Shown here in pieces: positions 16,611 to 29,160 of a stretch of 64,000 bases of DNA; position 1 is the stretch's first letter; each line of letters starts with the position of its first letter. The position numbers and the translations under genes were made by a program. Origin of the DNA: an uncultured Spirochaetota bacterium. GTDB lineage: Bacteria; Spirochaetota; Brevinematia; Brevinematales; JAOACQ01. The notes beneath the pieces are model-generated. The model made no database searches. It had not been told where the DNA came from and saw nothing but the letters and a program-made list of their open reading frames with translations. The stretch covers positions 576,001-640,000 of the forward strand of contig CAWIGG010000004.1 in assembly GCA_963835575.1 (NCBI GenBank). Reading direction: 5' to 3'.

Positions 16611-16657
16611 CGCGTCGATGAAACATTTAAAATTACAGTTTGCCTAAAGGATATAAC

Positions 16658-17413
16658 ATGAATAAATCTTACAAATCATTAGCCGGATATTATGACTTAA
16701 TTTTCCAGCAAAAAAATTATGAAAAAGAAGCAGACTTTATTTATCAGATTAAATCCAGGTATAAACAAGACGCGGCAAAAATACTCGATGTGGGGTGCGG
16801 GACAGGCGAACATTTAAATTTACTAAAGGATAAATTTGAAATACTCCAGGGTGTCGATTTAAATAAAGAAATTATAAAAGCCGCAAAGAAAAAATCCTCA
16901 AAAATAAAATATGCCGTTGCCGGGATGGCAGATTTTAAATTCAATCAAAAGTTTGATATTATCACATGCCTTTATTCGGTATTTAATTATAATTTAACTC
17001 TTGAAGAGGCTGATAGAACTATAAAGAATTTTAAGGAACATTTGGCTGCAGGCGGCATTTTAATAATTGCCTTATATAAACCAATGAATACTAAAAAAGA
17101 GATTAGTATCCATACCGGCAAAAAAAACAATATAGAAGTTGCCAAGATCAATCAATTTTCTATAGATAATGAAACAAATATAGAAACTTCTGATTTTATA
17201 GTTCTGATAAAGAAAAATGGTAAAGTGGATTTTTCAATAGAAAACGGTCATAAAATGAAAATATTTCAATTAGAGGAATTTTCAGAACTTTTAAGAACGA
17301 ATAAATTTGAAGATATATCTGTTTATGACAATTTTACAGATACTTATGCTGTAAGTGAATCAAAGTATCCGGTTTTTGTAGCGCGAAAAAGTTTGCATCA
17401 GCGCACGGCATAG
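16658..17413 (+). CDS. Class I SAM-dependent methyltransferase
   Basis: ILDVGCGTG and FDIITCL motifs; AT-rich. Confidence 0.9.
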   Translation: MNKSYKSLAGYYDLIFQQKNYEKEADFIYQIKSRYKQDAAKILDVGCGTGEHLNLLKDKFEILQGVDLNKEIIKAAKKKSSKIKYAVAGMADFKFNQKFDIITCLYSVFNYNLTLEEADRTIKNFKEHLAAGGILIIALYKPMNTKKEISIHTGKKNNIEVAKINQFSIDNETNIETSDFIVLIKKNGKVDFSIENGHKMKIFQLEEFSELLRTNKFEDISVYDNFTDTYAVSESKYPVFVARKSLHQRTA

Positions 17414-20590: not shown

Positions 20591-20656
20591 TTTATATTTA
20601 TAAATCAATGCCTTAAAGAATGATTAAAAACTCAAATAATGCTACTTGATTGTACT

Positions 20657-20705
20657 GATCCGATTCTGCACGCGGATGACGCGGATTATTCGGATTCGCG
20701 CGGAT
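20657..20705 (+). repeat. Left terminal inverted repeat L1 (CGGAT, 9-10-bp period)
   Basis: 40/49 identity to the reverse complement of 29088-29136. Confidence 0.85.
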
Positions 20706-20706
20706 C

Positions 20707-20856
20707 GGCTGATTGCTTCCGTTATCATAAAGTCAGCGCATCAGATTTTTTTTAAAAATAACGGTCTTGACAGTAAAACATTAATTTTTAAAATGATTGT
20801 AATAAATTTCGTATATTTTATAAAAAACGAAATGTTTTTTTTTGGAGTTAGCTGCC
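20707..20856 (+). promoter_or_regulatory. Recurring promoter module, copy 1
   Basis: TTGACA(20767)-N16-TAAAAT; colinear with 23060-23175 and with the reverse complement of 53800-53905. Confidence 0.7.
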
Positions 20857-20959: not shown

Positions 20960-22355
20960 GAGTTTTTGTCAAATGTTGTGTATGACATACCCTCTCATTT
21001 TTTTATGCTGCCTTTTTTACAAGCTCTCCGTTCTCAAAAACAGCGCCTTCCAATACAAGGCTAATCTTTTCATAACCTCTTAATTTTCTCCATCGCCTGG
21101 ATGCCTTATCCAGTAATTTATAGACCATTATTAGAATCGTTTCCCTGGTTCCGCAGCCTCTCATCTTTTTAGTTCTTAATCGAACTGTAGAGAAGGTAGA
21201 TTCTATTACGTTTGTCGTACGGATATGTACCCAATGTTCCGCCGGACAGTTATAAAATTCGATCATAAGCTCCCAATCCTTTTCTAAACATTCGACAGCT
21301 GCTGGATATTTAGGATTAAAAACCGCCTGGAATAATTCAAAAGCTTTGATAGCATTATCCTTATCAGGAGCATTGCATATCTCATGAAGCATCTCTTTTG
21401 CCTTTGACTGTAATACTTTGGGCAGCTTGTTTAGAATGTTCTTTATCTTATGAACCCAGCATCTCTGCCATCTGGATTCAGGATATACTTCTTTGGCTGC
21501 TTTCCAGAATCCAAGGCTTCCGTCTCCGATAAAAAGAATAGGACCTTTCAAACCTTTTTCTTTTAGGTTTCTTAATATCCCTAACCAAGTCTCGGAATTC
21601 TCTCTGTAACCTTCTTCAACAAGAATAATCTCCTTTTCACCATTCTCATTGGCTCCGATCATTACAAGAGTGCATAAACGGTCTTCGCTGCCCTGTACAT
21701 TGAAGTAAATGCCGTCAACCCATATATAGCAATACTTTTTATCGCTTAAATCGGATGTCCGCCACTCATCATATTCTTTACCCCATCCTTGTTTCATTCT
21801 GCTTATACTTGAGGCTGATAATCCTTTCGCTTCTTCACCAAGCAATCCTCTCAAGGCATTCTCCATATCCATCTCTGAGACTCCATAGAGATACAACAAT
21901 GGAATGGCTTCCTCAATTCTCAGGCTTTTTCTCATATACGGCGGTACTATTAGGCTTTGAAAATTGTCGCCTCCGAGTCGGTTCCTTGTTCTCGGAATAC
22001 ATACATCAATAGCCCCTCCACCAATGAGAATCTGACGGGCTTTATGATACCCATTTCTTACTATTGCCTTTCTCCCGTCTTCGATAGTTAAATGCTCTCT
22101 CTCCTGAAGAAACCCATTAATTTCATCTTCCAGAGCCTTCTTGATTATTTCCCTGGCCCCGATCCTTGCCAATTCTTCAAGACATAAAAATTCTACTGTT
22201 TCATCTTGATTAAAAGCCTGTAAGAGCTTAAAATCTTCGTTGTGCTTCGGCATATGGCGTATTCCTCCTTTTGTTTATTGTCGTAAATAAATTATAGAGG
22301 GTACGCCATCTTTTTTATAATATTTATTCCTATACACAACTTTCTATTATAACTC
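20960..22355 (-). mobile_element. IS256-family element, 1396 bp, copy 1
   Basis: Imperfect IRs beginning GAGTT; 8-bp TSD TACCTGAA at 20952-20959 and 22356-22363. Confidence 0.95.
21003..22253 (-). CDS. IS256-family (mutator-type) transposase
   Basis: RNGY, YIWVDGIY, IGDG, WQRCWVH and RTTNVIES motifs; protein identical to 24923..26173. Confidence 0.96.
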   Translation of the reverse strand: MPKHNEDFKLLQAFNQDETVEFLCLEELARIGAREIIKKALEDEINGFLQEREHLTIEDGRKAIVRNGYHKARQILIGGGAIDVCIPRTRNRLGGDNFQSLIVPPYMRKSLRIEEAIPLLYLYGVSEMDMENALRGLLGEEAKGLSASSISRMKQGWGKEYDEWRTSDLSDKKYCYIWVDGIYFNVQGSEDRLCTLVMIGANENGEKEIILVEEGYRENSETWLGILRNLKEKGLKGPILFIGDGSLGFWKAAKEVYPESRWQRCWVHKIKNILNKLPKVLQSKAKEMLHEICNAPDKDNAIKAFELFQAVFNPKYPAAVECLEKDWELMIEFYNCPAEHWVHIRTTNVIESTFSTVRLRTKKMRGCGTRETILIMVYKLLDKASRRWRKLRGYEKISLVLEGAVFENGELVKKAA

Positions 22356-22656
22356 TACCTGAAAGAGATTATATTATATTCATTAATGAAGTCACTCGTT
22401 TGTATATCTATTTTAATTATAATAGAACTGAATTATTGAATTTTGTTGTTAAATTAGAGATAATATATTTAAATAAATGGACTGAGATTGAACGTTATGA
22501 CTGCTATCATGACATTGTCCATAAGGACATTTTAAATAAAAAAGGGAAGAAAATTAAATCCATTCGTTTTCCTCTGGTTGATAGAAAAGCAGGTGTTAAT
22601 TTTGCCGTTAATGATTTTAGAGAAAATTTTGAATTGTATGTCTGGAGGTTCTTAAA

Positions 22657-22830
22657 ATGAAAAAAAATAAAAGAACTGAAGTCGAACAGGTCATAGAATA
22701 TCTTGAAAAAGAGGGATTCAGAGAAATCAAGCCTGAAGAACGAAACCTGCCGGAATTTCGAGATTCCATAAAAGAAACCCGCAAATTAATTAAAGAAATG
22801 AATTCTAAAAAAAAGAAAGTTAAAATATAA
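22657..22830 (+). CDS. 57-aa charged protein, putative antitoxin (below the ORF-track cutoff)
   Basis: MKKNKRTEVEQVIEYLEKEGFREIKPEERNLPEFRDSIKETRKLIKEMNSKKKKVKI; GGAGG RBS and ATGA overlap with the upstream gene. Confidence 0.65.
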   Translation: MKKNKRTEVEQVIEYLEKEGFREIKPEERNLPEFRDSIKETRKLIKEMNSKKKKVKI

Positions 22831-23008: not shown

Positions 23009-23175
23009 TAATATCCGATTGTTCACGCGGATCAGCACGGATAGGACGGATTTGCGCAGAGCAGCCTGATTGTTTCCAGCATTATAAAGTCAACACATCA
23101 GATTTTTAAAAAAATACCGGTCTTGACAGTAAAGTATTGCTTTATTAAGATGAATGAAATAAATTTCATATATAA
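23009..23175 (+). promoter_or_regulatory. Left repeat L2 (23009-23057) plus promoter module copy 2
   Basis: CGGAT periodic repeat followed by TTGACA(23123)-N17-TAAGAT; GAGGAG RBS before ATG 23202. Confidence 0.75.
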
Positions 23176-24820
23176 AGAGTTGAATAAAGAGGAGATTAAT
23201 TATGAATAAGACAAATCAGGCTGTTATTAAAATAGATCTGTGTGGTTCTAAAAAATATTACGAAAAAAACAAATATTCCGAACCAAATATTACTCAAATA
23301 ACTTTAGATAAACTTTTATCCGTTGTTAAAGAAATATTTCCATATTCAAATTTAGATTTTCCAAAAGGTAGTTTATATGCAAGGCAAGGTGATTGTGTTT
23401 ATATAATTTTAGATAAAGCCACAATTGCATTACGATCATCAATAGAGTTTATGAAAAAATGGTTTAGTATTTTACCAAGTTTACCAGATTGTAGAGCAAT
23501 AATTGATTATGGTGAAATATCAATTGATGATAGTAGACCTAGAATTGAACTTATTTCAGAATGTTTTGAGAACATTAGTGTAATAGAAAAATCTTACGGC
23601 GCTGGAGAAATTGGTGTCACGGAGGCATTAAAAAATAATTCCGATAATACATTAGTCCAATTTATTAAAAAAAAGAAAATTGATATAACAGAAGGTAGAT
23701 TTGTTAATGTTTTTCAAGCCAATTATGAAGACCCTCGATTATTTCAAGATAGTAGTTTAATTCATTCATTATTCGTGGCTTCATCGGACACAAGTAATGC
23801 AAGAGAAATGGCTATTGAAGCCCTAATTCTCGAATGTTTAATTGAAAGAATCAACAAACCGATTTCATTAATAGATTTAAATTACTGGTTAAAATATAAA
23901 AATTGCCCTCAAATTGATCAATTATTAATAGATGGTATTATACAAAAATCAAAGTACATATCGAAAGATAAGGAAAATAACATTGTTTTTAAAAGTTCAG
24001 ATACAATTAAGGAGTTAAATGTTATTAAAGAAGATTTTGAAGCACAACGTGATGATACTATTAAAAAAATAGCTTTATATTTAAGCGATGGTTTGGGTTT
24101 GGACACCTCGATAGTGAATAAAGAATTAAACTTGACTGATCTTGTTGAGAAATATTTATGCGCTGTATTTTTAGAAATTCGTTTTATGGCAAATTACTTC
24201 AAATCCACACAACTATTGTTTGAAAAATTATCTTCTGATGAAGATTTTGATTATATAATAAAATCGCATTTATCAAATAGTAATTCCATAGGTATAGAGC
24301 AATTTGCATTATTAAAGAAATTATTTCTTGATGCATTGACAAATGTAGCAACAAAAAACAATAAATATATTGCATCAATATTCCATAATATACTTATGAT
24401 ATATTATTTAAACCGCAGTGAAAAATATATCCACTCTCAATTAGAAATAATGAAACAAAAGGAAATTTATATTGATACAAATGTTCTTTATTCAATAAAA
24501 TGTAAATATAGTCAATATCATGATATGCTGACATATATAATTGATAATTTAAACAGACTTGGAGCTCAGATATTTGTTTTTGAAAAAAGTGTGGCTGAAT
24601 ATAATGATTCATTAACTACAACTTTTAAAAAATATAAAAATGATACACTCAATTTTTTACATCAAGAGAAAAAACCTTGGATATGGTATGAATATGAAAA
24701 TAATATTAATTCATACCAAAATAGTTTTGAATATTGCATTTCTTTGCATCATATACCAATAAATACAAATAATTCAATTGATGATAGTTTCGAAGAAGCC
24801 AGAAAAGAATTATCTCAAAG

Positions 24821-26216
24821 GAGTTATAATAGAAAGTTGTGTATAGGAATAAATATTATAAAAAAGATGGCGTACCCTCTATAATTTATTTACGACAATA
24901 AACAAAAGGAGGAATACGCCATATGCCGAAGCACAACGAAGATTTTAAGCTCTTACAGGCTTTTAATCAAGATGAAACAGTAGAATTTTTATGTCTTGAA
25001 GAATTGGCAAGGATCGGGGCCAGGGAAATAATCAAGAAGGCTCTGGAAGATGAAATTAATGGGTTTCTTCAGGAGAGAGAGCATTTAACTATCGAAGACG
25101 GGAGAAAGGCAATAGTAAGAAATGGGTATCATAAAGCCCGTCAGATTCTCATTGGTGGAGGGGCTATTGATGTATGTATTCCGAGAACAAGGAACCGACT
25201 CGGAGGCGACAATTTTCAAAGCCTAATAGTACCGCCGTATATGAGAAAAAGCCTGAGAATTGAGGAAGCCATTCCATTGTTGTATCTCTATGGAGTCTCA
25301 GAGATGGATATGGAGAATGCCTTGAGAGGATTGCTTGGTGAAGAAGCGAAAGGATTATCAGCCTCAAGTATAAGCAGAATGAAACAAGGATGGGGTAAAG
25401 AATATGATGAGTGGCGGACATCCGATTTAAGCGATAAAAAGTATTGCTATATATGGGTTGACGGCATTTACTTCAATGTACAGGGCAGCGAAGACCGTTT
25501 ATGCACTCTTGTAATGATCGGAGCCAATGAGAATGGTGAAAAGGAGATTATTCTTGTTGAAGAAGGTTACAGAGAGAATTCCGAGACTTGGTTAGGGATA
25601 TTAAGAAACCTAAAAGAAAAAGGTTTGAAAGGTCCTATTCTTTTTATCGGAGACGGAAGCCTTGGATTCTGGAAAGCAGCCAAAGAAGTATATCCTGAAT
25701 CCAGATGGCAGAGATGCTGGGTTCATAAGATAAAGAACATTCTAAACAAGCTGCCCAAAGTATTACAGTCAAAGGCAAAAGAGATGCTTCATGAGATATG
25801 CAATGCTCCTGATAAGGATAATGCTATCAAAGCTTTTGAATTATTCCAGGCGGTTTTTAATCCTAAATATCCAGCAGCTGTCGAATGTTTAGAAAAGGAT
25901 TGGGAGCTTATGATCGAATTTTATAACTGTCCGGCGGAACATTGGGTACATATCCGTACGACAAACGTAATAGAATCTACCTTCTCTACAGTTCGATTAA
26001 GAACTAAAAAGATGAGAGGCTGCGGAACCAGGGAAACGATTCTAATAATGGTCTATAAATTACTGGATAAGGCATCCAGGCGATGGAGAAAATTAAGAGG
26101 TTATGAAAAGATTAGCCTTGTATTGGAAGGCGCTGTTTTTGAGAACGGAGAGCTTGTAAAAAAGGCAGCATAAAAAAATGAGAGGGTATGTCATACACAA
26201 CATTTGACAAAAACTC
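24821..26216 (+). mobile_element. IS256-family element, 1396 bp, copy 2
   Basis: 9-bp TSD ATCTCAAAG at 24812-24820 and 26217-26225; inverted copy of 20960-22355. Confidence 0.95.
24923..26173 (+). CDS. IS256-family transposase
   Basis: Same protein as 21003..22253. Confidence 0.96.
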   Translation: MPKHNEDFKLLQAFNQDETVEFLCLEELARIGAREIIKKALEDEINGFLQEREHLTIEDGRKAIVRNGYHKARQILIGGGAIDVCIPRTRNRLGGDNFQSLIVPPYMRKSLRIEEAIPLLYLYGVSEMDMENALRGLLGEEAKGLSASSISRMKQGWGKEYDEWRTSDLSDKKYCYIWVDGIYFNVQGSEDRLCTLVMIGANENGEKEIILVEEGYRENSETWLGILRNLKEKGLKGPILFIGDGSLGFWKAAKEVYPESRWQRCWVHKIKNILNKLPKVLQSKAKEMLHEICNAPDKDNAIKAFELFQAVFNPKYPAAVECLEKDWELMIEFYNCPAEHWVHIRTTNVIESTFSTVRLRTKKMRGCGTRETILIMVYKLLDKASRRWRKLRGYEKISLVLEGAVFENGELVKKAA

Positions 26217-27015
26217 ATCTCAAAGTAAAATACATTTAGTAAAATTAGAACCTTATTTAGATGAAAATTCCTTAAAGAATGTATTCAACTTAGTTTATAA
26301 TGCTAAGAAAGATTATAAATCTGAATTTGACCTCTATGGTGTTCCATATGATTCGGAATTTTATAAAATGAAGGTTTTACATGACTCAAATTGTTTATAT
26401 AAATTGAAATCAAAAGCGTCAAACCCCTTTGAAGCCAAACAATTATTTGTCACATGTGATTATCATTTAACTAAGGTCCGAAAAATTGAAAGAAATGAAT
26501 ATGAATTTTTAGTAGCAATAACTGAATTCTACGAATTTATATTACCTTATTTATTTCTATCAGATTCTGTAACTGCAAATCCAATCGAGATGCCTAATTT
26601 TTTATTAGCATCTGCACTTTCTATTGATCTATCAAATATTTTAGATTTAGACTCAATGATTGGTAGATATTTAATTCACGATAAAAATATTAACCAAAGA
26701 CATGAAATAATATCGAAATTAAAAGAAACAGAAAGATTTAATTCAATAAAGAAAAAACATGAAACTTTATTTAAACAAAAAAATGATGTAATTACAAAAG
26801 AAGAAATTAGTGATTTCATTTTTGAAGTTAATAATTTATCAAAAGATTATAAACAAGAAGTAAAAAATCAACTTGTAAAAAACATTACACAAAAAACAAT
26901 TTTTGATAAAGATAGTCAGATTTCTCAGCTAAAAGAAGTAAATGAAGCTTTACTTCTTGAACTTGAAAAATATAAGAAAAAAGAAAAAGGTACTAATTAT
27001 TACTTTAAGATGATG

Positions 27016-28690
27016 TTGCCTGTCGGTTTTTATAACATGCTTCATGGACATACGGCAGGGTTCCCGTTAAAATAAAACGGGAGAAAAAGATGGCAAGATT
27101 TGAAAAGAACAGCCTGGAGCAGGGTGAGTTCCTCGCGATCAATATAGGCGAGCAGTTTGATGAGAATTCCAGAGAATTTATACTAAAAGAATTCATCAAA
27201 AACCGTATTAAACTGGAGGATTTCGCGGCTTACTATAAGAACGACCATAGAGGCAGAGAGATTAAAAATCCTCGGGATGTGATCTGTGCGGTACTCTACG
27301 GTTACATTACGGGAAATCGTATCAGCCGAAAGATAGAAGATTTGCTGAAAAAACACATTGGGTTTATGTATGTTTCAAACCGGCTGAAAATTGACCATTC
27401 GGTAATTTGCGAGTTCAAGGTACTTTTTCAGGAAAAGATCGAGGAGTTGTTCAGCCAGCTTTTATATATACTCAACGAAATGGGGTCTATAGATTGGGAC
27501 ATGGTAGTGGGTGACGGCACAAAGATCAAGGCCTACGCGAGTAAGAATAAGAATGTGGGAAAGAAACATACCCGGAAGCTGATGGACACTTACCAGAAGA
27601 TGGCGGAAAAGATTGTGAAACAAGACCTGGAACTGGAAGAATCTTACCGGGAAGGCAAGCTGGAGCAGCCTTATTACGAAGCGGAGAAGAAGCGGGTATC
27701 AAGGCGGAAAAAGATTTACGATAGTGTTTTGAACCAAATCGATGAATACAAAAAACAGGTAGAGAGAGGGGAAAAGACAGACGAAGAATTCACCAACCTG
27801 ACTGATCCCGAAAGCAAGCTGATGTCTGGAAATCCGCATAGTGTGTTTATACAGGGATATAATTCGGCGATGATGGTCAGTAATAATGATGTGATTATAG
27901 ATTTTGAAGCAATCACAACACCGGAAAAACAGCATACGGAAGAAATGGTAAAGAGGGTGGAACAGAAAAAAGCGGAATTAAAAGTTGATAAGGCTAGCAA
28001 ATACCTTTTTGATTCGGGTTTTCAGGACATGGAAGAGACAATCCGGATGGTGGAGGAAGGAAAAGACCTTTATGTGGATACGAAAGAGCGGGATTTCAGT
28101 GATAAATCACAGAAGCGAAGAGACTTTAAACTGGAAAAGATTGATGACGAATATATCCTGGGATGCCGGGGCGGCCGTAAGGAAAATGGGTATTTAGATC
28201 GAAATAACCAAAGATATACATTTTTGTATTCACGGAAGGGCTGTGAAAGATGTCCATTTTTCAGTGAGTGTTATAAAAACATCAAACCGAAAACACAGCA
28301 AAAGACAGTAATTTTCAGTGAGTTTGAATTGAATAATCGGTCTAAGATTGATGCTTATTTAACAAAACTTTACAGCGAAGAAGGGCAAAAGATATACAAC
28401 CGCAGGATAGGTAAAGAACACGTATTTTCAAACATCAAAACACAGAAGGGTTATGTTCAGACAGTTTACAGAGGTCAACGGAAAGTGAATTTGGAGCTAT
28501 GCTGGGTATCCCTTGCGCATAATTTTATGAAATATGCCCAATATTTGAGAAAATAGAGAGGATTTTGTATAGTCTGAGTATCGATTATTCGAAATTTATT
28601 ATTAAAATCAGCTAAGCTGACAAAATTTTTATTTGCCCGCTTATTGTAAGGGGCTGGTTTGACTCCGAAAATGAAATAACCGACAGGCAA
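27016..28690 (+). mobile_element. IS1182-family element, 1675 bp
   Basis: IRs TTGCCTGTCGGTT / AACCGACAGGCAA; 4-bp TSD GATG at 27012-27015 and 28691-28694. Confidence 0.9.
27090..28556 (+). CDS. IS1182-family DDE transposase
   Basis: SRKIE, DHSVICEF, DGTKIKAYAS, TDPESKLM, QGYN, FDSGF and EHVFSNIK motifs. Confidence 0.92.
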   Translation: MARFEKNSLEQGEFLAINIGEQFDENSREFILKEFIKNRIKLEDFAAYYKNDHRGREIKNPRDVICAVLYGYITGNRISRKIEDLLKKHIGFMYVSNRLKIDHSVICEFKVLFQEKIEELFSQLLYILNEMGSIDWDMVVGDGTKIKAYASKNKNVGKKHTRKLMDTYQKMAEKIVKQDLELEESYREGKLEQPYYEAEKKRVSRRKKIYDSVLNQIDEYKKQVERGEKTDEEFTNLTDPESKLMSGNPHSVFIQGYNSAMMVSNNDVIIDFEAITTPEKQHTEEMVKRVEQKKAELKVDKASKYLFDSGFQDMEETIRMVEEGKDLYVDTKERDFSDKSQKRRDFKLEKIDDEYILGCRGGRKENGYLDRNNQRYTFLYSRKGCERCPFFSECYKNIKPKTQQKTVIFSEFELNNRSKIDAYLTKLYSEEGQKIYNRRIGKEHVFSNIKTQKGYVQTVYRGQRKVNLELCWVSLAHNFMKYAQYLRK

Positions 28691-28868
28691 GATGGAAAAA
28701 AGAAATAAAAGAAATAAAAAATAATACACCATCTGTAGTTTTCCTTTAAAGCAAGTTTCGGCCCCTCACAGTAGATTCTTTTGTAGAACCTAATTTTTAA
28801 TGACGGCAATACGGCTTTGACACTTGCTTATAAAGCCGGAGCTAAATAAATTAGAAATGTCTTGCGAT

Positions 28869-29160
28869 AAATCCCGAACAATCCTGTTAATCCTGCAAAA
28901 TTGGGGTCAGTACAATAGTTTCAATCAAATAAAAAAGGACATTTGTATTAAAATATTTTGTCTATCGGTCGTAGCCTATATCTTCACCTCCTCCGTGCCT
29001 TCAGTGAACTCTGTGGTTAATTTAAAACGTATATCAGATATAACCCAGTCACGAATTGAACTAAAAAGCAGTTCGGCATAAAATAAAATCCGTGCAAATC
29101 CGCCTCATCCGTGTTATCCGTGTGCTGAATCGGATCGATACCATAGCTTCAATCAAAAAA
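28869..29160 (-). repeat. Cluster of three right-arm periodic repeats (28869-28929, 28991-29020, 29088-29160)
   Basis: Tandem aatcc units. The first and third arms share the tail GG-TC--TAC-ATAG-TTCAATCAAA. Confidence 0.8.

Follow-up and report, generated by a model that had tools for sequence, protein, structure and literature searches.

A gene broken by two insertion sequences in an uncultured Spirochaetota bacterium belongs to an unnamed family of cyclase-like and PIN-like fusion proteins with a possible link to Pycsar-type immunity

Introduction

What was the gene that two insertion sequences (ISs) have split into three pieces at positions 23202..28724 of a 64,000-nucleotide stretch of DNA from an uncultured Spirochaetota bacterium (Brevinematia, Brevinematales, JAOACQ01; assembly GCA_963835575.1, contig CAWIGG010000004.1, positions 576,001 to 640,000 of the forward strand), and could its product have served in defence against phages? 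An earlier note on this whole stretch, hereafter the window, had joined the three pieces into an 812-residue protein combining a class III cyclase-like domain with a PIN-like nuclease domain, and had proposed it as a candidate new single-gene defence system. We followed up this proposal by reconstructing the gene, modelling the structure of its homologues and comparing the neighbourhoods in which these homologues are encoded. On balance, and with moderate confidence, we read the gene as a horizontally acquired member, inactivated not long ago, of an unnamed family of ~800-residue proteins, most likely acting in anti-phage defence or abortive infection and linked to Pycsar-type immunity.

Results

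A single reading frame is restored when both ISs are removed

Excision of both ISs, each flanked by a target duplication, restores a single frame of 812 codons, all on the + strand. By translation, fragment 1 (23202..24820) carries codons 1-539 and the first two bases of codon 540; fragment 2 (26226..27015) supplies the third base of that codon, which reads AG+T across the join and encodes Ser, followed by 263 codons (541-803); and fragment 3 (28695..28724), in frame with fragment 2 after removal of the second IS and one GATG, holds the last 9 codons, a basic tail (EKRNKRNKK), and then the stop. Fragment 1 comprises the cyclase-like domain (~23202-23740), a winged-helix-like and helical middle (~23741-24450) and, beginning at ~24451, the first half of the PIN domain, limits that were taken from the model of the homologue P0005 and from fold searches. 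Fragment 2 contains the second half of the PIN domain, to ~26620, and then helices and a long C-terminal helix.

The relative P0004, a fragment of an uninterrupted protein that is 83-85% identical to the window protein, aligns through its residues 6-371 with residues 172-537 of fragment 1, and through its residues 375-559 with residues 1-185 of fragment 2, with exactly three residues intervening on both sides. The first join is independently verified, since P0004 is collinear across the break. Fragment 2, 85% identical to P0004, also matches positions 520-792 of the 799 positions of the family profile. The second join, and with it the probable placing of the last 9 residues, would follow solely from the target duplication and the ends of the IS; a basic C-terminal tail also occurs in the homologue at locus L013. 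A frame of 812 codons is far beyond chance, given that the DNA has a guanine-cytosine (GC) content of 25% and that homologues match at E = 0. The single frame proposed in the earlier note therefore holds, on the coordinates, the duplications, the further IS copies and the alignment of P0004 across the first break, and all nine sequence motifs that it had quoted are present in the joined protein (residues 9-16, 61-68, 98-106, 123-129, 135-141, 422-429, 463-467, 591-594 and 614-618).

The first insertion (24821..26216, + strand) is an IS256-type element of 1396 bp, with a Transposase_mut open reading frame (ORF) at 24923-26173 (416 amino acids, E 3e-63), 24-nt terminal inverted repeats and a 9-bp target duplication, ATCTCAAAG, at 24812-24820 and 26217-26225. 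At least 32 further full-length copies, ~100% identical, are found in the 4.39-Mb genome, and these fix the ends of the element to the base. A target duplication of 8-9 bp is the length expected for the IS256 family, and the assignment to this family agrees with the Mutator-type transposase, the inverted repeats and the duplications of 9 bp at this site and 8 bp at a second copy. That second copy lies in the window at 20960-22356 on the - strand, just upstream of a DUF7718 gene, and is flanked by the 8-bp duplication TACCTGAA. The two copies had seemed to share flanking DNA, as arms of a 1428-nt repeat, but we rejected this: the extra 31 nt are an artefact of ungapped extension and the IS measures 1396 bp.

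The second insertion (27016..28690, + strand, ~1675 bp) removes the last 9 codons from the gene. Its transposase (27090-28556, 488 amino acids) matches DDE_Tnp_1_6 (E 2e-16), DUF772 and DDE_Tnp_1 in Pfam, and from the pairing of DDE_Tnp_1_6 with DUF772 we take the element to be of IS1182/IS5 type. It has inverted ends and a 4-bp duplication, GATG, at 27012-27015 and 28691-28694, and the common range of at least 23 further genomic copies ends at the coordinates 27016 and 28690. Matches among these copies often extend a few bases beyond the element ends, and similar target sequences may be preferred. The genome is thus the site of a large IS expansion of which the broken gene is one more casualty, and the copy in the window is a pseudogene, inactivated by two ISs.

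The gene belongs to an unnamed family of about 800 residues

A search with fragment 1 matched 58 proteins, ~45 of them intact, with lengths of 770-842 amino acids, 95-100% query coverage and 29-50% identity. All the homologues in the family are unnamed or called 'hypothetical' and carry no precomputed Pfam domain. Of 1.84 billion representatives, a profile built from 43 full-length members retrieved 284 as relatives at E <= 1e-3, and 93 of these reach E <= 1e-30. The hosts of the homologues include Desulfobacterota, Zixibacteria, Spirochaetia, Planctomycetota, Acidobacteriota and Gammaproteobacteria, and a pattern scan of a viral contig collection returned no relatives. For structural work we relied mainly on P0005, an intact homologue of 804 amino acids that is 50% identical to the window protein, whose AlphaFold2 model has a predicted local distance difference test score (pLDDT) of 85 and a predicted template modelling score of 0.82.

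Weak PIN matches aside, neither the window fragments nor the full-length members that we scanned could be assigned to a family in Pfam, NCBIfam or PADLOC. The family is undescribed and unnamed, and because it is absent from these three collections it is missed by current defence-finding tools. No paper describing a cyclase-PIN fusion was found in the literature accessible to us, which did not extend to the figures and supplementary files of two comparative-genomics papers, so that mention in a table is possible. The word 'cyclase' is absent from the PIN classification paper (PMC5499597). The ESM Atlas gave leads only, linking the middle region at up to 0.88 to unnamed clusters and the whole protein at 0.77 to a Guanylate_cyc cluster.

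The N-terminal domain has a predicted class III cyclase fold

In the predicted structure the first ~175 residues adopt the class III cyclase fold. When the P0005 model, with a pLDDT of ~90 over residues 1-180, was searched with Foldseek, the top rows were all class III adenylyl or guanylyl cyclases (E 7e-7, template modelling score up to 0.80). VIA, which is independent of Foldseek, aligned 154 residues of Rv1264 with model residues 1-172 at Z 19.6 and a root-mean-square deviation (rmsd) of 2.4, and placed three solved Pycsar-type pyrimidine cyclases at Z 15.2-15.8 and GGDEF domains only at Z 10-12. Profile comparisons point the same way: the family profile matches the Ma1120 cyclase at E 1.4e-6, and hhalign against seven canonical cyclase domains encoded in the genome of the window gave a probability of 84% (E 7.5e-6).

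Both metal-binding residues of this fold are present. Asp12, the first (motif KIDLCGSK; 23235..23237, + strand), is invariant in the 43 full-length homologues and takes the place of the first catalytic Asp in alignments with PycC and with class III cyclases. Asp64, the second (motif QGDCVY; 23391..23393, + strand), corresponds in alignment to the GD motif in Ma1120; its conservation is 90% or more in the 43-member alignment, and in two others it is invariant. The helix that normally carries N-x-A-x-R is replaced by ENISVIEK (23568..23591, + strand), in which Glu123 stands at the Asn position, Val127 at the Arg/Lys position, and Glu129-Lys130 are invariant. Three independent alignments, to Ma1120 by hidden Markov model and to PycC and the canonical cyclases by hhalign, agree on this register. 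The invariant polar residues of the family are D12, S16, K17, G63-D64, E123 and E129-K130, with D64 at 90% or more in the weakest alignment; K10 is invariant in a 12-sequence alignment and at least 90% conserved in a further one, while R98 is invariant in the 12-sequence alignment and Lys in two sequences of a further one. The nucleotide-metal site is retained and strongly constrained, but ordinary cyclase chemistry is doubtful because the transition-state Asn and Arg are replaced.

A PIN domain with a large insertion follows a helical middle region

The predicted secondary structure of the middle region (~185-415) consists of three helices and a beta-hairpin, winged-helix-like, and then a helical bundle. 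Beyond it, the model places a PIN fold with a D/E/D/D site at residues ~420-640. In the VIA search of a model of the PIN region (from L003, pLDDT 79), ranks 1-9 were all VapC- or PIN-type chains (Z 8.9-7.7, ~130 of ~134 target residues aligned); most of the 37 rows at Z >= 5 were PIN-domain proteins, and non-PIN rows appeared at Z below 5. The PIN core is predicted to hold an insertion of ~90 residues, since the ~130 aligned residues span model residues 22-243. Foldseek placed PIN proteins at ranks 2-14 with probabilities of 0.95-0.97 and weak E-values of 0.02-0.1.

The four acidic residues of the site are each invariant in the 43 homologues and lie on the + strand: Asp425 (motif IYIDTN, 24474..24476; D421 in P0005), Glu466 (SVAEY, 24597..24599; E462), Asp593 (LHDS, 26383..26385; D577, preceded by the invariant H576) and Asp618 (FVTCD, 26458..26460; D602, with T600 also invariant). 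Against Pfam, the window fragment matches PIN_3 weakly (E 0.033; 15.5 bits, cut-off 27), as do 5 of the 43 members with PIN or PIN_3, and two distant relatives exceed the cut-off for PIN or PIN_3 (P0187, 25.2 bits against 23.6; P0168, 27.2 against 27). The IS256-type element was inserted within the large PIN insertion, between the second and third acidic residues, and because it separates the first two from the last two the nuclease is dead here. Since the last ~89 residues of the P0005 model are predicted as a single helix, the C-terminus probably forms a coiled coil for self-association.

The models thus give an architecture of a cyclase fold, a winged-helix and helical middle, a PIN domain and a C-terminal helix of ~89 residues. 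This agrees with what the earlier note had read from the sequence alone: a class III cyclase-like domain (Foldseek E 7e-7, VIA Z 19.6, Ma1120 profile match E 1.4e-6) keeping both metal-binding Asp (D12 and D64, invariant or at least 90% conserved), an altered N-x-A-x-R segment on which the three alignments concur, and a PIN-like pattern (VIA Z 8.9, four invariant acidic residues). Its coiled coil is borne out as far as the long predicted helix, the coiled coil itself being deduced from that helix. It had recognised no named system, and we likewise obtained no Pfam, NCBIfam or PADLOC family match. It had named a lack of profile support for either fold as a refutation; the fold searches support both folds, profile comparison supports the cyclase fold, and most of the Pfam PIN matches are weak.

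Homologues are encoded beside Pycsar genes in 7 of 38 loci

We compared the neighbourhoods of 38 loci in total, with ORFs called by a simple script. Of the 16 genome loci we used 13, the fragmentary L015-L017 being set aside; of the 47 metagenome loci we used 27, chosen for having flanks, from which L036 and L038 were dropped as duplicates of L035 and L037. ORFs within ~4.5-5 kb of the homologue were scanned and five small ORFs were dropped.

Pycsar genes adjoin the homologue in 7 of the 38 loci (L009, L011, L013, L022, L024, L025 and L046), and in 7 of the 38 the membrane effector gene PycTM is among the adjoining genes. PycC and PycTM lie upstream of the homologue in L009, downstream of it in L011, and upstream but divergently transcribed in L024; L046 has the order homologue-PycTM-PycC, and L022 (2165-7456) the order PycTM-PycC-PycC-homologue, on one strand throughout. 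In L013 and L025 the PycTM gene stands directly 5' of the homologue and shares its strand, the two genes overlapping by 8 nt in L013; no PycC was found in the flanks of either locus. The Pycsar-linked loci cover the diversity of the family, with 29-51% identity to P0005. The three cyclase-fold genes in a row in L022 recall the multi-cyclase loci reported in the available part of a 2026 preprint on Pucsar (bioRxiv 10.64898/2026.08.12.744502).

In raw counts, at least one PADLOC match was found near the homologue in 17 of the 38 loci. The neighbours include a type IV restriction enzyme (L005), a PNP-EAD7 effector (L006), type I restriction-modification, HEC-01A and a kinase (L008), DruE, PDC-S11 and a restriction enzyme (L032), TIR (L034) and IetA (L043), with further matches in L028, L039, L042 and L052. 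No small ORF was seen to be conserved across the scanned loci. As a conserved partner gene we considered the DUF7718 gene upstream in the window and the 57-residue ORF next to it, and rejected both, as they do not recur beside the homologues. The search for intact homologues that the earlier note had called for yielded ~45, and many homologues lie in defence-type neighbourhoods.

The gene is of foreign origin and patchily distributed

The GC content of the gene is 25%, that of the window 42% and that of the two ISs 39-40%. The cyclase-PIN family was not found in any of 40 related genomes (40 of 40), including four of the same genus, and in a phylum sample of 401 genomes the only full match was in the window's own genome, four others matching weakly in the cyclase part only. 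By its composition and distribution this is an accessory gene of foreign origin, most likely acquired horizontally. Damaged copies also occur elsewhere. At L013 (8001-10400) a single in-frame stop, falling on the Tyr that is conserved in MANYF, breaks the homologue, and at L008 (7986-10400) a homologue with several frameshifts sits inside a restriction-modification island. The homologue is split into two ORFs in L051, L054 and L055, and L015-L017 hold partial matches within long contigs.

Some members carry extra N-terminal domains, and some relatives lack the cyclase-like domain

Several members carry additional domains. An extra N-terminal alpha/beta-hydrolase, matching a PADLOC Lamassu effector model, is present in P0078, P0079 and L010, and an extra N-terminal PNP_UDP_1 domain in P0077; in shorter, possibly truncated proteins Metallophos, GT4-conflict or a hydrolase is joined to the cyclase-like domain. 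Conflict systems typically shuffle effector-type domains in this way, according to the accessible text of Kaur et al. 2020 (PMC7159879). We also observed a sister group of 620-750 amino acids (P0144, P0169, P0174, P0180, P0183 and P0187) that has the middle region, the PIN domain and the coiled coil without the cyclase domain. Three of its members terminate in an Mrr_cat nuclease, and P0180 has a weak PADLOC Drt3b match in its middle region (E 2e-5). P0169 as query against the 401 phylum genomes gave no match, its own genome included, so that this search is uninformative.

Upstream of the gene a repeat is shared with a neighbouring cassette

A promoter-like site found by consensus scan only (23123..23151, + strand; TTGACA, 17 nt, TAAGAT) lies 51 nt upstream of the start codon, within a repeat that is also present upstream of the neighbouring DUF7718 cassette. 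This composite repeat of ~165 nt occurs in the window at 20649-20816, at 23010-23175 and, inverted, at 29088-29144, and it precedes both the DUF7718 unit and the cyclase-PIN gene with 79% identity. Its first ~50 nt, GGAT-rich, are found at ~30 places in the genome, and its second part, with the promoter-like site, in only ~6 copies; two other full copies stand upstream of an alpha/beta-hydrolase gene and beside an IS21 element. The repeat may mark cassette boundaries. The DUF7718 unit itself (22400-22830, GC 29%) consists of two genes, an 86-amino-acid DUF7718 protein (E 1e-19) overlapping by 4 nt an ORF of 57 amino acids that belongs to no family, and could be a small toxin-antitoxin-like or other accessory cassette. 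Further upstream, at 16640-17413, a class I methyltransferase of 257 amino acids matches the PADLOC mad2 model (E 2e-14); it is probably not a defence gene, because it has many generic Pfam methyltransferase matches.

Discussion

How could a protein of this architecture work? We hypothesise that the cyclase-like domain binds a nucleoside triphosphate (NTP) with metal and, as a divergent enzyme, would make a cyclic or other nucleotide when infection is sensed. The nucleotide state would then free the fused PIN nuclease, which would cleave RNA and stop the infected cell, and in some genomes the same product could also drive the neighbouring PycTM membrane effector. That the domain is a divergent active enzyme making a nucleotide product on infection is a tentative view, to which we give slightly less than an even chance; we favour it because the site is strictly conserved and because in L013 and L025 the gene stands beside PycTM where a cyclase gene would be. 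A bolder version makes the family a self-contained branch of cyclic-mononucleotide immunity, in which a cyclase with Glu in place of Asn would produce the signal, a receptor formed by the winged-helix and helical middle region, different from a cyclic-mononucleotide-binding domain of CAP type, would free the PIN RNase in cis, and PycTM would act as a pore in trans in some genomes; this we consider unlikely. If true, Pycsar-like signalling would gain both a cyclase chemistry and a receptor fold that are new to it.

A number of observations weigh against the reading of this family as a Pycsar-linked defence system. The defence role itself would follow from neighbourhoods, and here 21 of the 38 loci have no nearby PADLOC match, PADLOC includes generic families such as methyltransferases and helicases, and the loci are not all independent, L009, L011 and L012 being close kin. 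In the window the neighbours are housekeeping genes, with no defence neighbour apart from the generic methyltransferase, and its genome has no PycTM. A special kinship of the cyclase-like domain to PycC is not borne out, as hhalign to six neighbouring PycC gave 62% as against 84% for the housekeeping cyclases, and no PADLOC PycC model matches the domain at E <= 0.01. Pfam Guanylate_cyc (PF00211) misses the window protein and all 43 homologues; in the window's genome it retrieves seven other cyclases and not the cyclase-PIN gene. The invariant Glu123 stands in for the transition-state Asn, and the Arg/Lys position is occupied by Val in the window protein and by Val, Ile, Thr or Lys in other members. 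Pfam scans of the window protein and its homologues revealed no cyclic nucleoside monophosphate (cNMP)-binding domain between the cyclase and the PIN domain, and the Foldseek E-values of the PIN region, as given above, are weak.

The replacement of Asn and Arg in a domain that keeps its metal and phosphate site also fits a different role, that of a non-catalytic receptor or switch which would bind NTP, or else the cyclic nucleotide (pyrimidine or purine) that a separate Pycsar-type cyclase produces, and so unlock the PIN domain. Pycsar would then have a third kind of effector, one that senses through a degenerate cyclase domain. Five loci (L009, L011, L022, L024 and L046) have a complete PycC and PycTM pair adjoining the homologue, an ATP-binding class III cyclase-like protein (PDB 6yii) is among the fold matches at Z 12.6, and in the portion of PMC7159879 that is available inactive, possibly nucleotide-binding cNMP cyclase domains are described in conflict systems. 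We nevertheless hold a receptor role to be doubtful, since in L013 and L025 PycTM is accompanied by the cyclase-PIN gene only, with no other cyclase in the flanks and the cyclase slot thus occupied, since Pycsar genes are missing from the vicinity in 31 of the 38 loci and in the genome of the window, and since the invariant metal-binding Asp and charged residues fit an enzyme equally well. The relatives of 620-750 amino acids that begin at the middle region, some of them with a C-terminal Mrr nuclease, suggest another arrangement, in which the middle, PIN and coiled coil would be the core unit, as sensor, nuclease or both, and the cyclase-like domain an exchangeable output that signals to effectors in trans without gating the PIN domain. 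Members that add an N-terminal alpha/beta-hydrolase, PNP, Metallophos or GT4-conflict domain, and the PycTM gene directly 5' in L013 and L025, are in keeping with such an exchangeable output. Most loci, however, have no trans effector nearby, the extra domains of the full-length cases (P0077-P0079) precede the cyclase domain instead of replacing it, and the short proteins with other N-terminal domains may be truncated by their contigs, so that we regard this arrangement as improbable.

A role outside immunity, either as a housekeeping or stress RNA-processing enzyme or as a selfish, toxin-like addiction gene of a mobile element, would agree with the frequency of PIN domains in toxin-antitoxin modules and RNA processing, with VapC toxins as the best fold matches, with the 21 loci of 38 that lack a nearby defence match, and with the integrase, recombinase or transposase genes near the homologue in L005, L011, L012 and L037. 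A housekeeping role is at odds with a presence in 1 of 401 phylum genomes, with 25% as against 42% GC and with frequent pseudogenes; an addiction gene is at odds with the scanned loci, across which no conserved small partner (antitoxin) gene was seen, and the pattern scan of viral contigs did not detect the family. We consider a non-immune role very improbable. The reading as a Pycsar-linked defence family, which we prefer, differs in one respect from the single-gene system of the earlier note. The idea of an unnamed family with defence neighbours stands, and in some genomes the protein may need partners, because Pycsar genes adjoin the homologue in 7 of the 38 loci and because PycTM occurs without another cyclase in L013 and L025; the copy in the window is, besides, a pseudogene.

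In cyclic-nucleotide immunity, as in CBASS, Pycsar and type III CRISPR, the protein that makes the signal is normally separate from the receptor-effector protein. Here a cyclase-fold domain and a nuclease share one polypeptide in which a receptor domain cannot be recognised, and Pycsar genes are repeatedly found next to members of the family. Should this link prove real, a cyclic-nucleotide pathway within one protein would be a compact test case for the sensing of infection, which is still open for Pycsar, or else a degenerate cyclase would be found to serve as a nucleotide receptor. For the genome of the window the meaning is modest, that of one casualty of an IS expansion.

Among known systems, the family can be compared with the cNMP cyclase conflict fusions (PMC7159879; bioRxiv 10.64898/2026.08.12.744502), in which, as far as the available text of these sources goes, the cyclase is likewise one module of a modular, fast-diversifying protein in a defence context. 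The fusion partners named in these texts are vWA/VMAP, STAND NTPases, AGS-C and similar domains, and multi-cyclase loci are noted as well; in the available text of PMC7159879 some cyclase domains are inactive and may merely bind nucleotide, and PIN is mentioned solely as a separate effector, while 'PIN' is absent from the main text of the preprint. The class III cyclase-like protein of Pseudomonas aeruginosa in PDB 6yii (Z 12.6), whose entry title says ATP-binding, offers a precedent for a non-catalytic domain of cyclase fold; true cyclases match the family more strongly, and the architecture of the 6yii protein is different. With VapC-type PIN toxins the family shares ~130 of ~134 aligned residues at Z 8-9 and four invariant acidic residues, but its PIN domain has an insertion of ~90 residues, is one domain of an 800-residue protein, falls below the Pfam PIN cut-offs in the members themselves and has no antitoxin gene conserved beside it.

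The class III cyclases Rv1264, Ma1120, CyaC and Cya2 are the best fold matches to residues 1-174 (Z 19.6-16, rmsd 2.3-2.9), and the family keeps their metal-binding Asp pair and the Arg of the R-x-G-I-H-x-G strand. It differs from them in having Glu for the transition-state Asn, an Arg that is not conserved and a variable residue at the base-specifying Lys position, and in being below Pfam thresholds and fused to a nuclease. From Pycsar the family is set apart by reading F-E-N-I-S-V where PycC reads A-N-x-A-S-K, by missing every PADLOC PycC model and Pfam Guanylate_cyc, and by the fusion of its cyclase-like domain to a region of ~600 residues, helical, PIN and coiled coil, in which no cNMP-binding domain was detected. 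It resembles Pycsar in the class III cyclase fold of its N-terminal domain with both metal-binding Asp, at Z 15.2-15.8 to solved PycC-type structures, and in its place beside PycC, PycTM or both in 7 of the 38 loci, twice in the cyclase slot directly after PycTM. In the outline of its proposed working the cyclase-PIN protein would resemble Pycsar as well and, we presume, the effectors that couple a CARF or SAVED domain to a nuclease.

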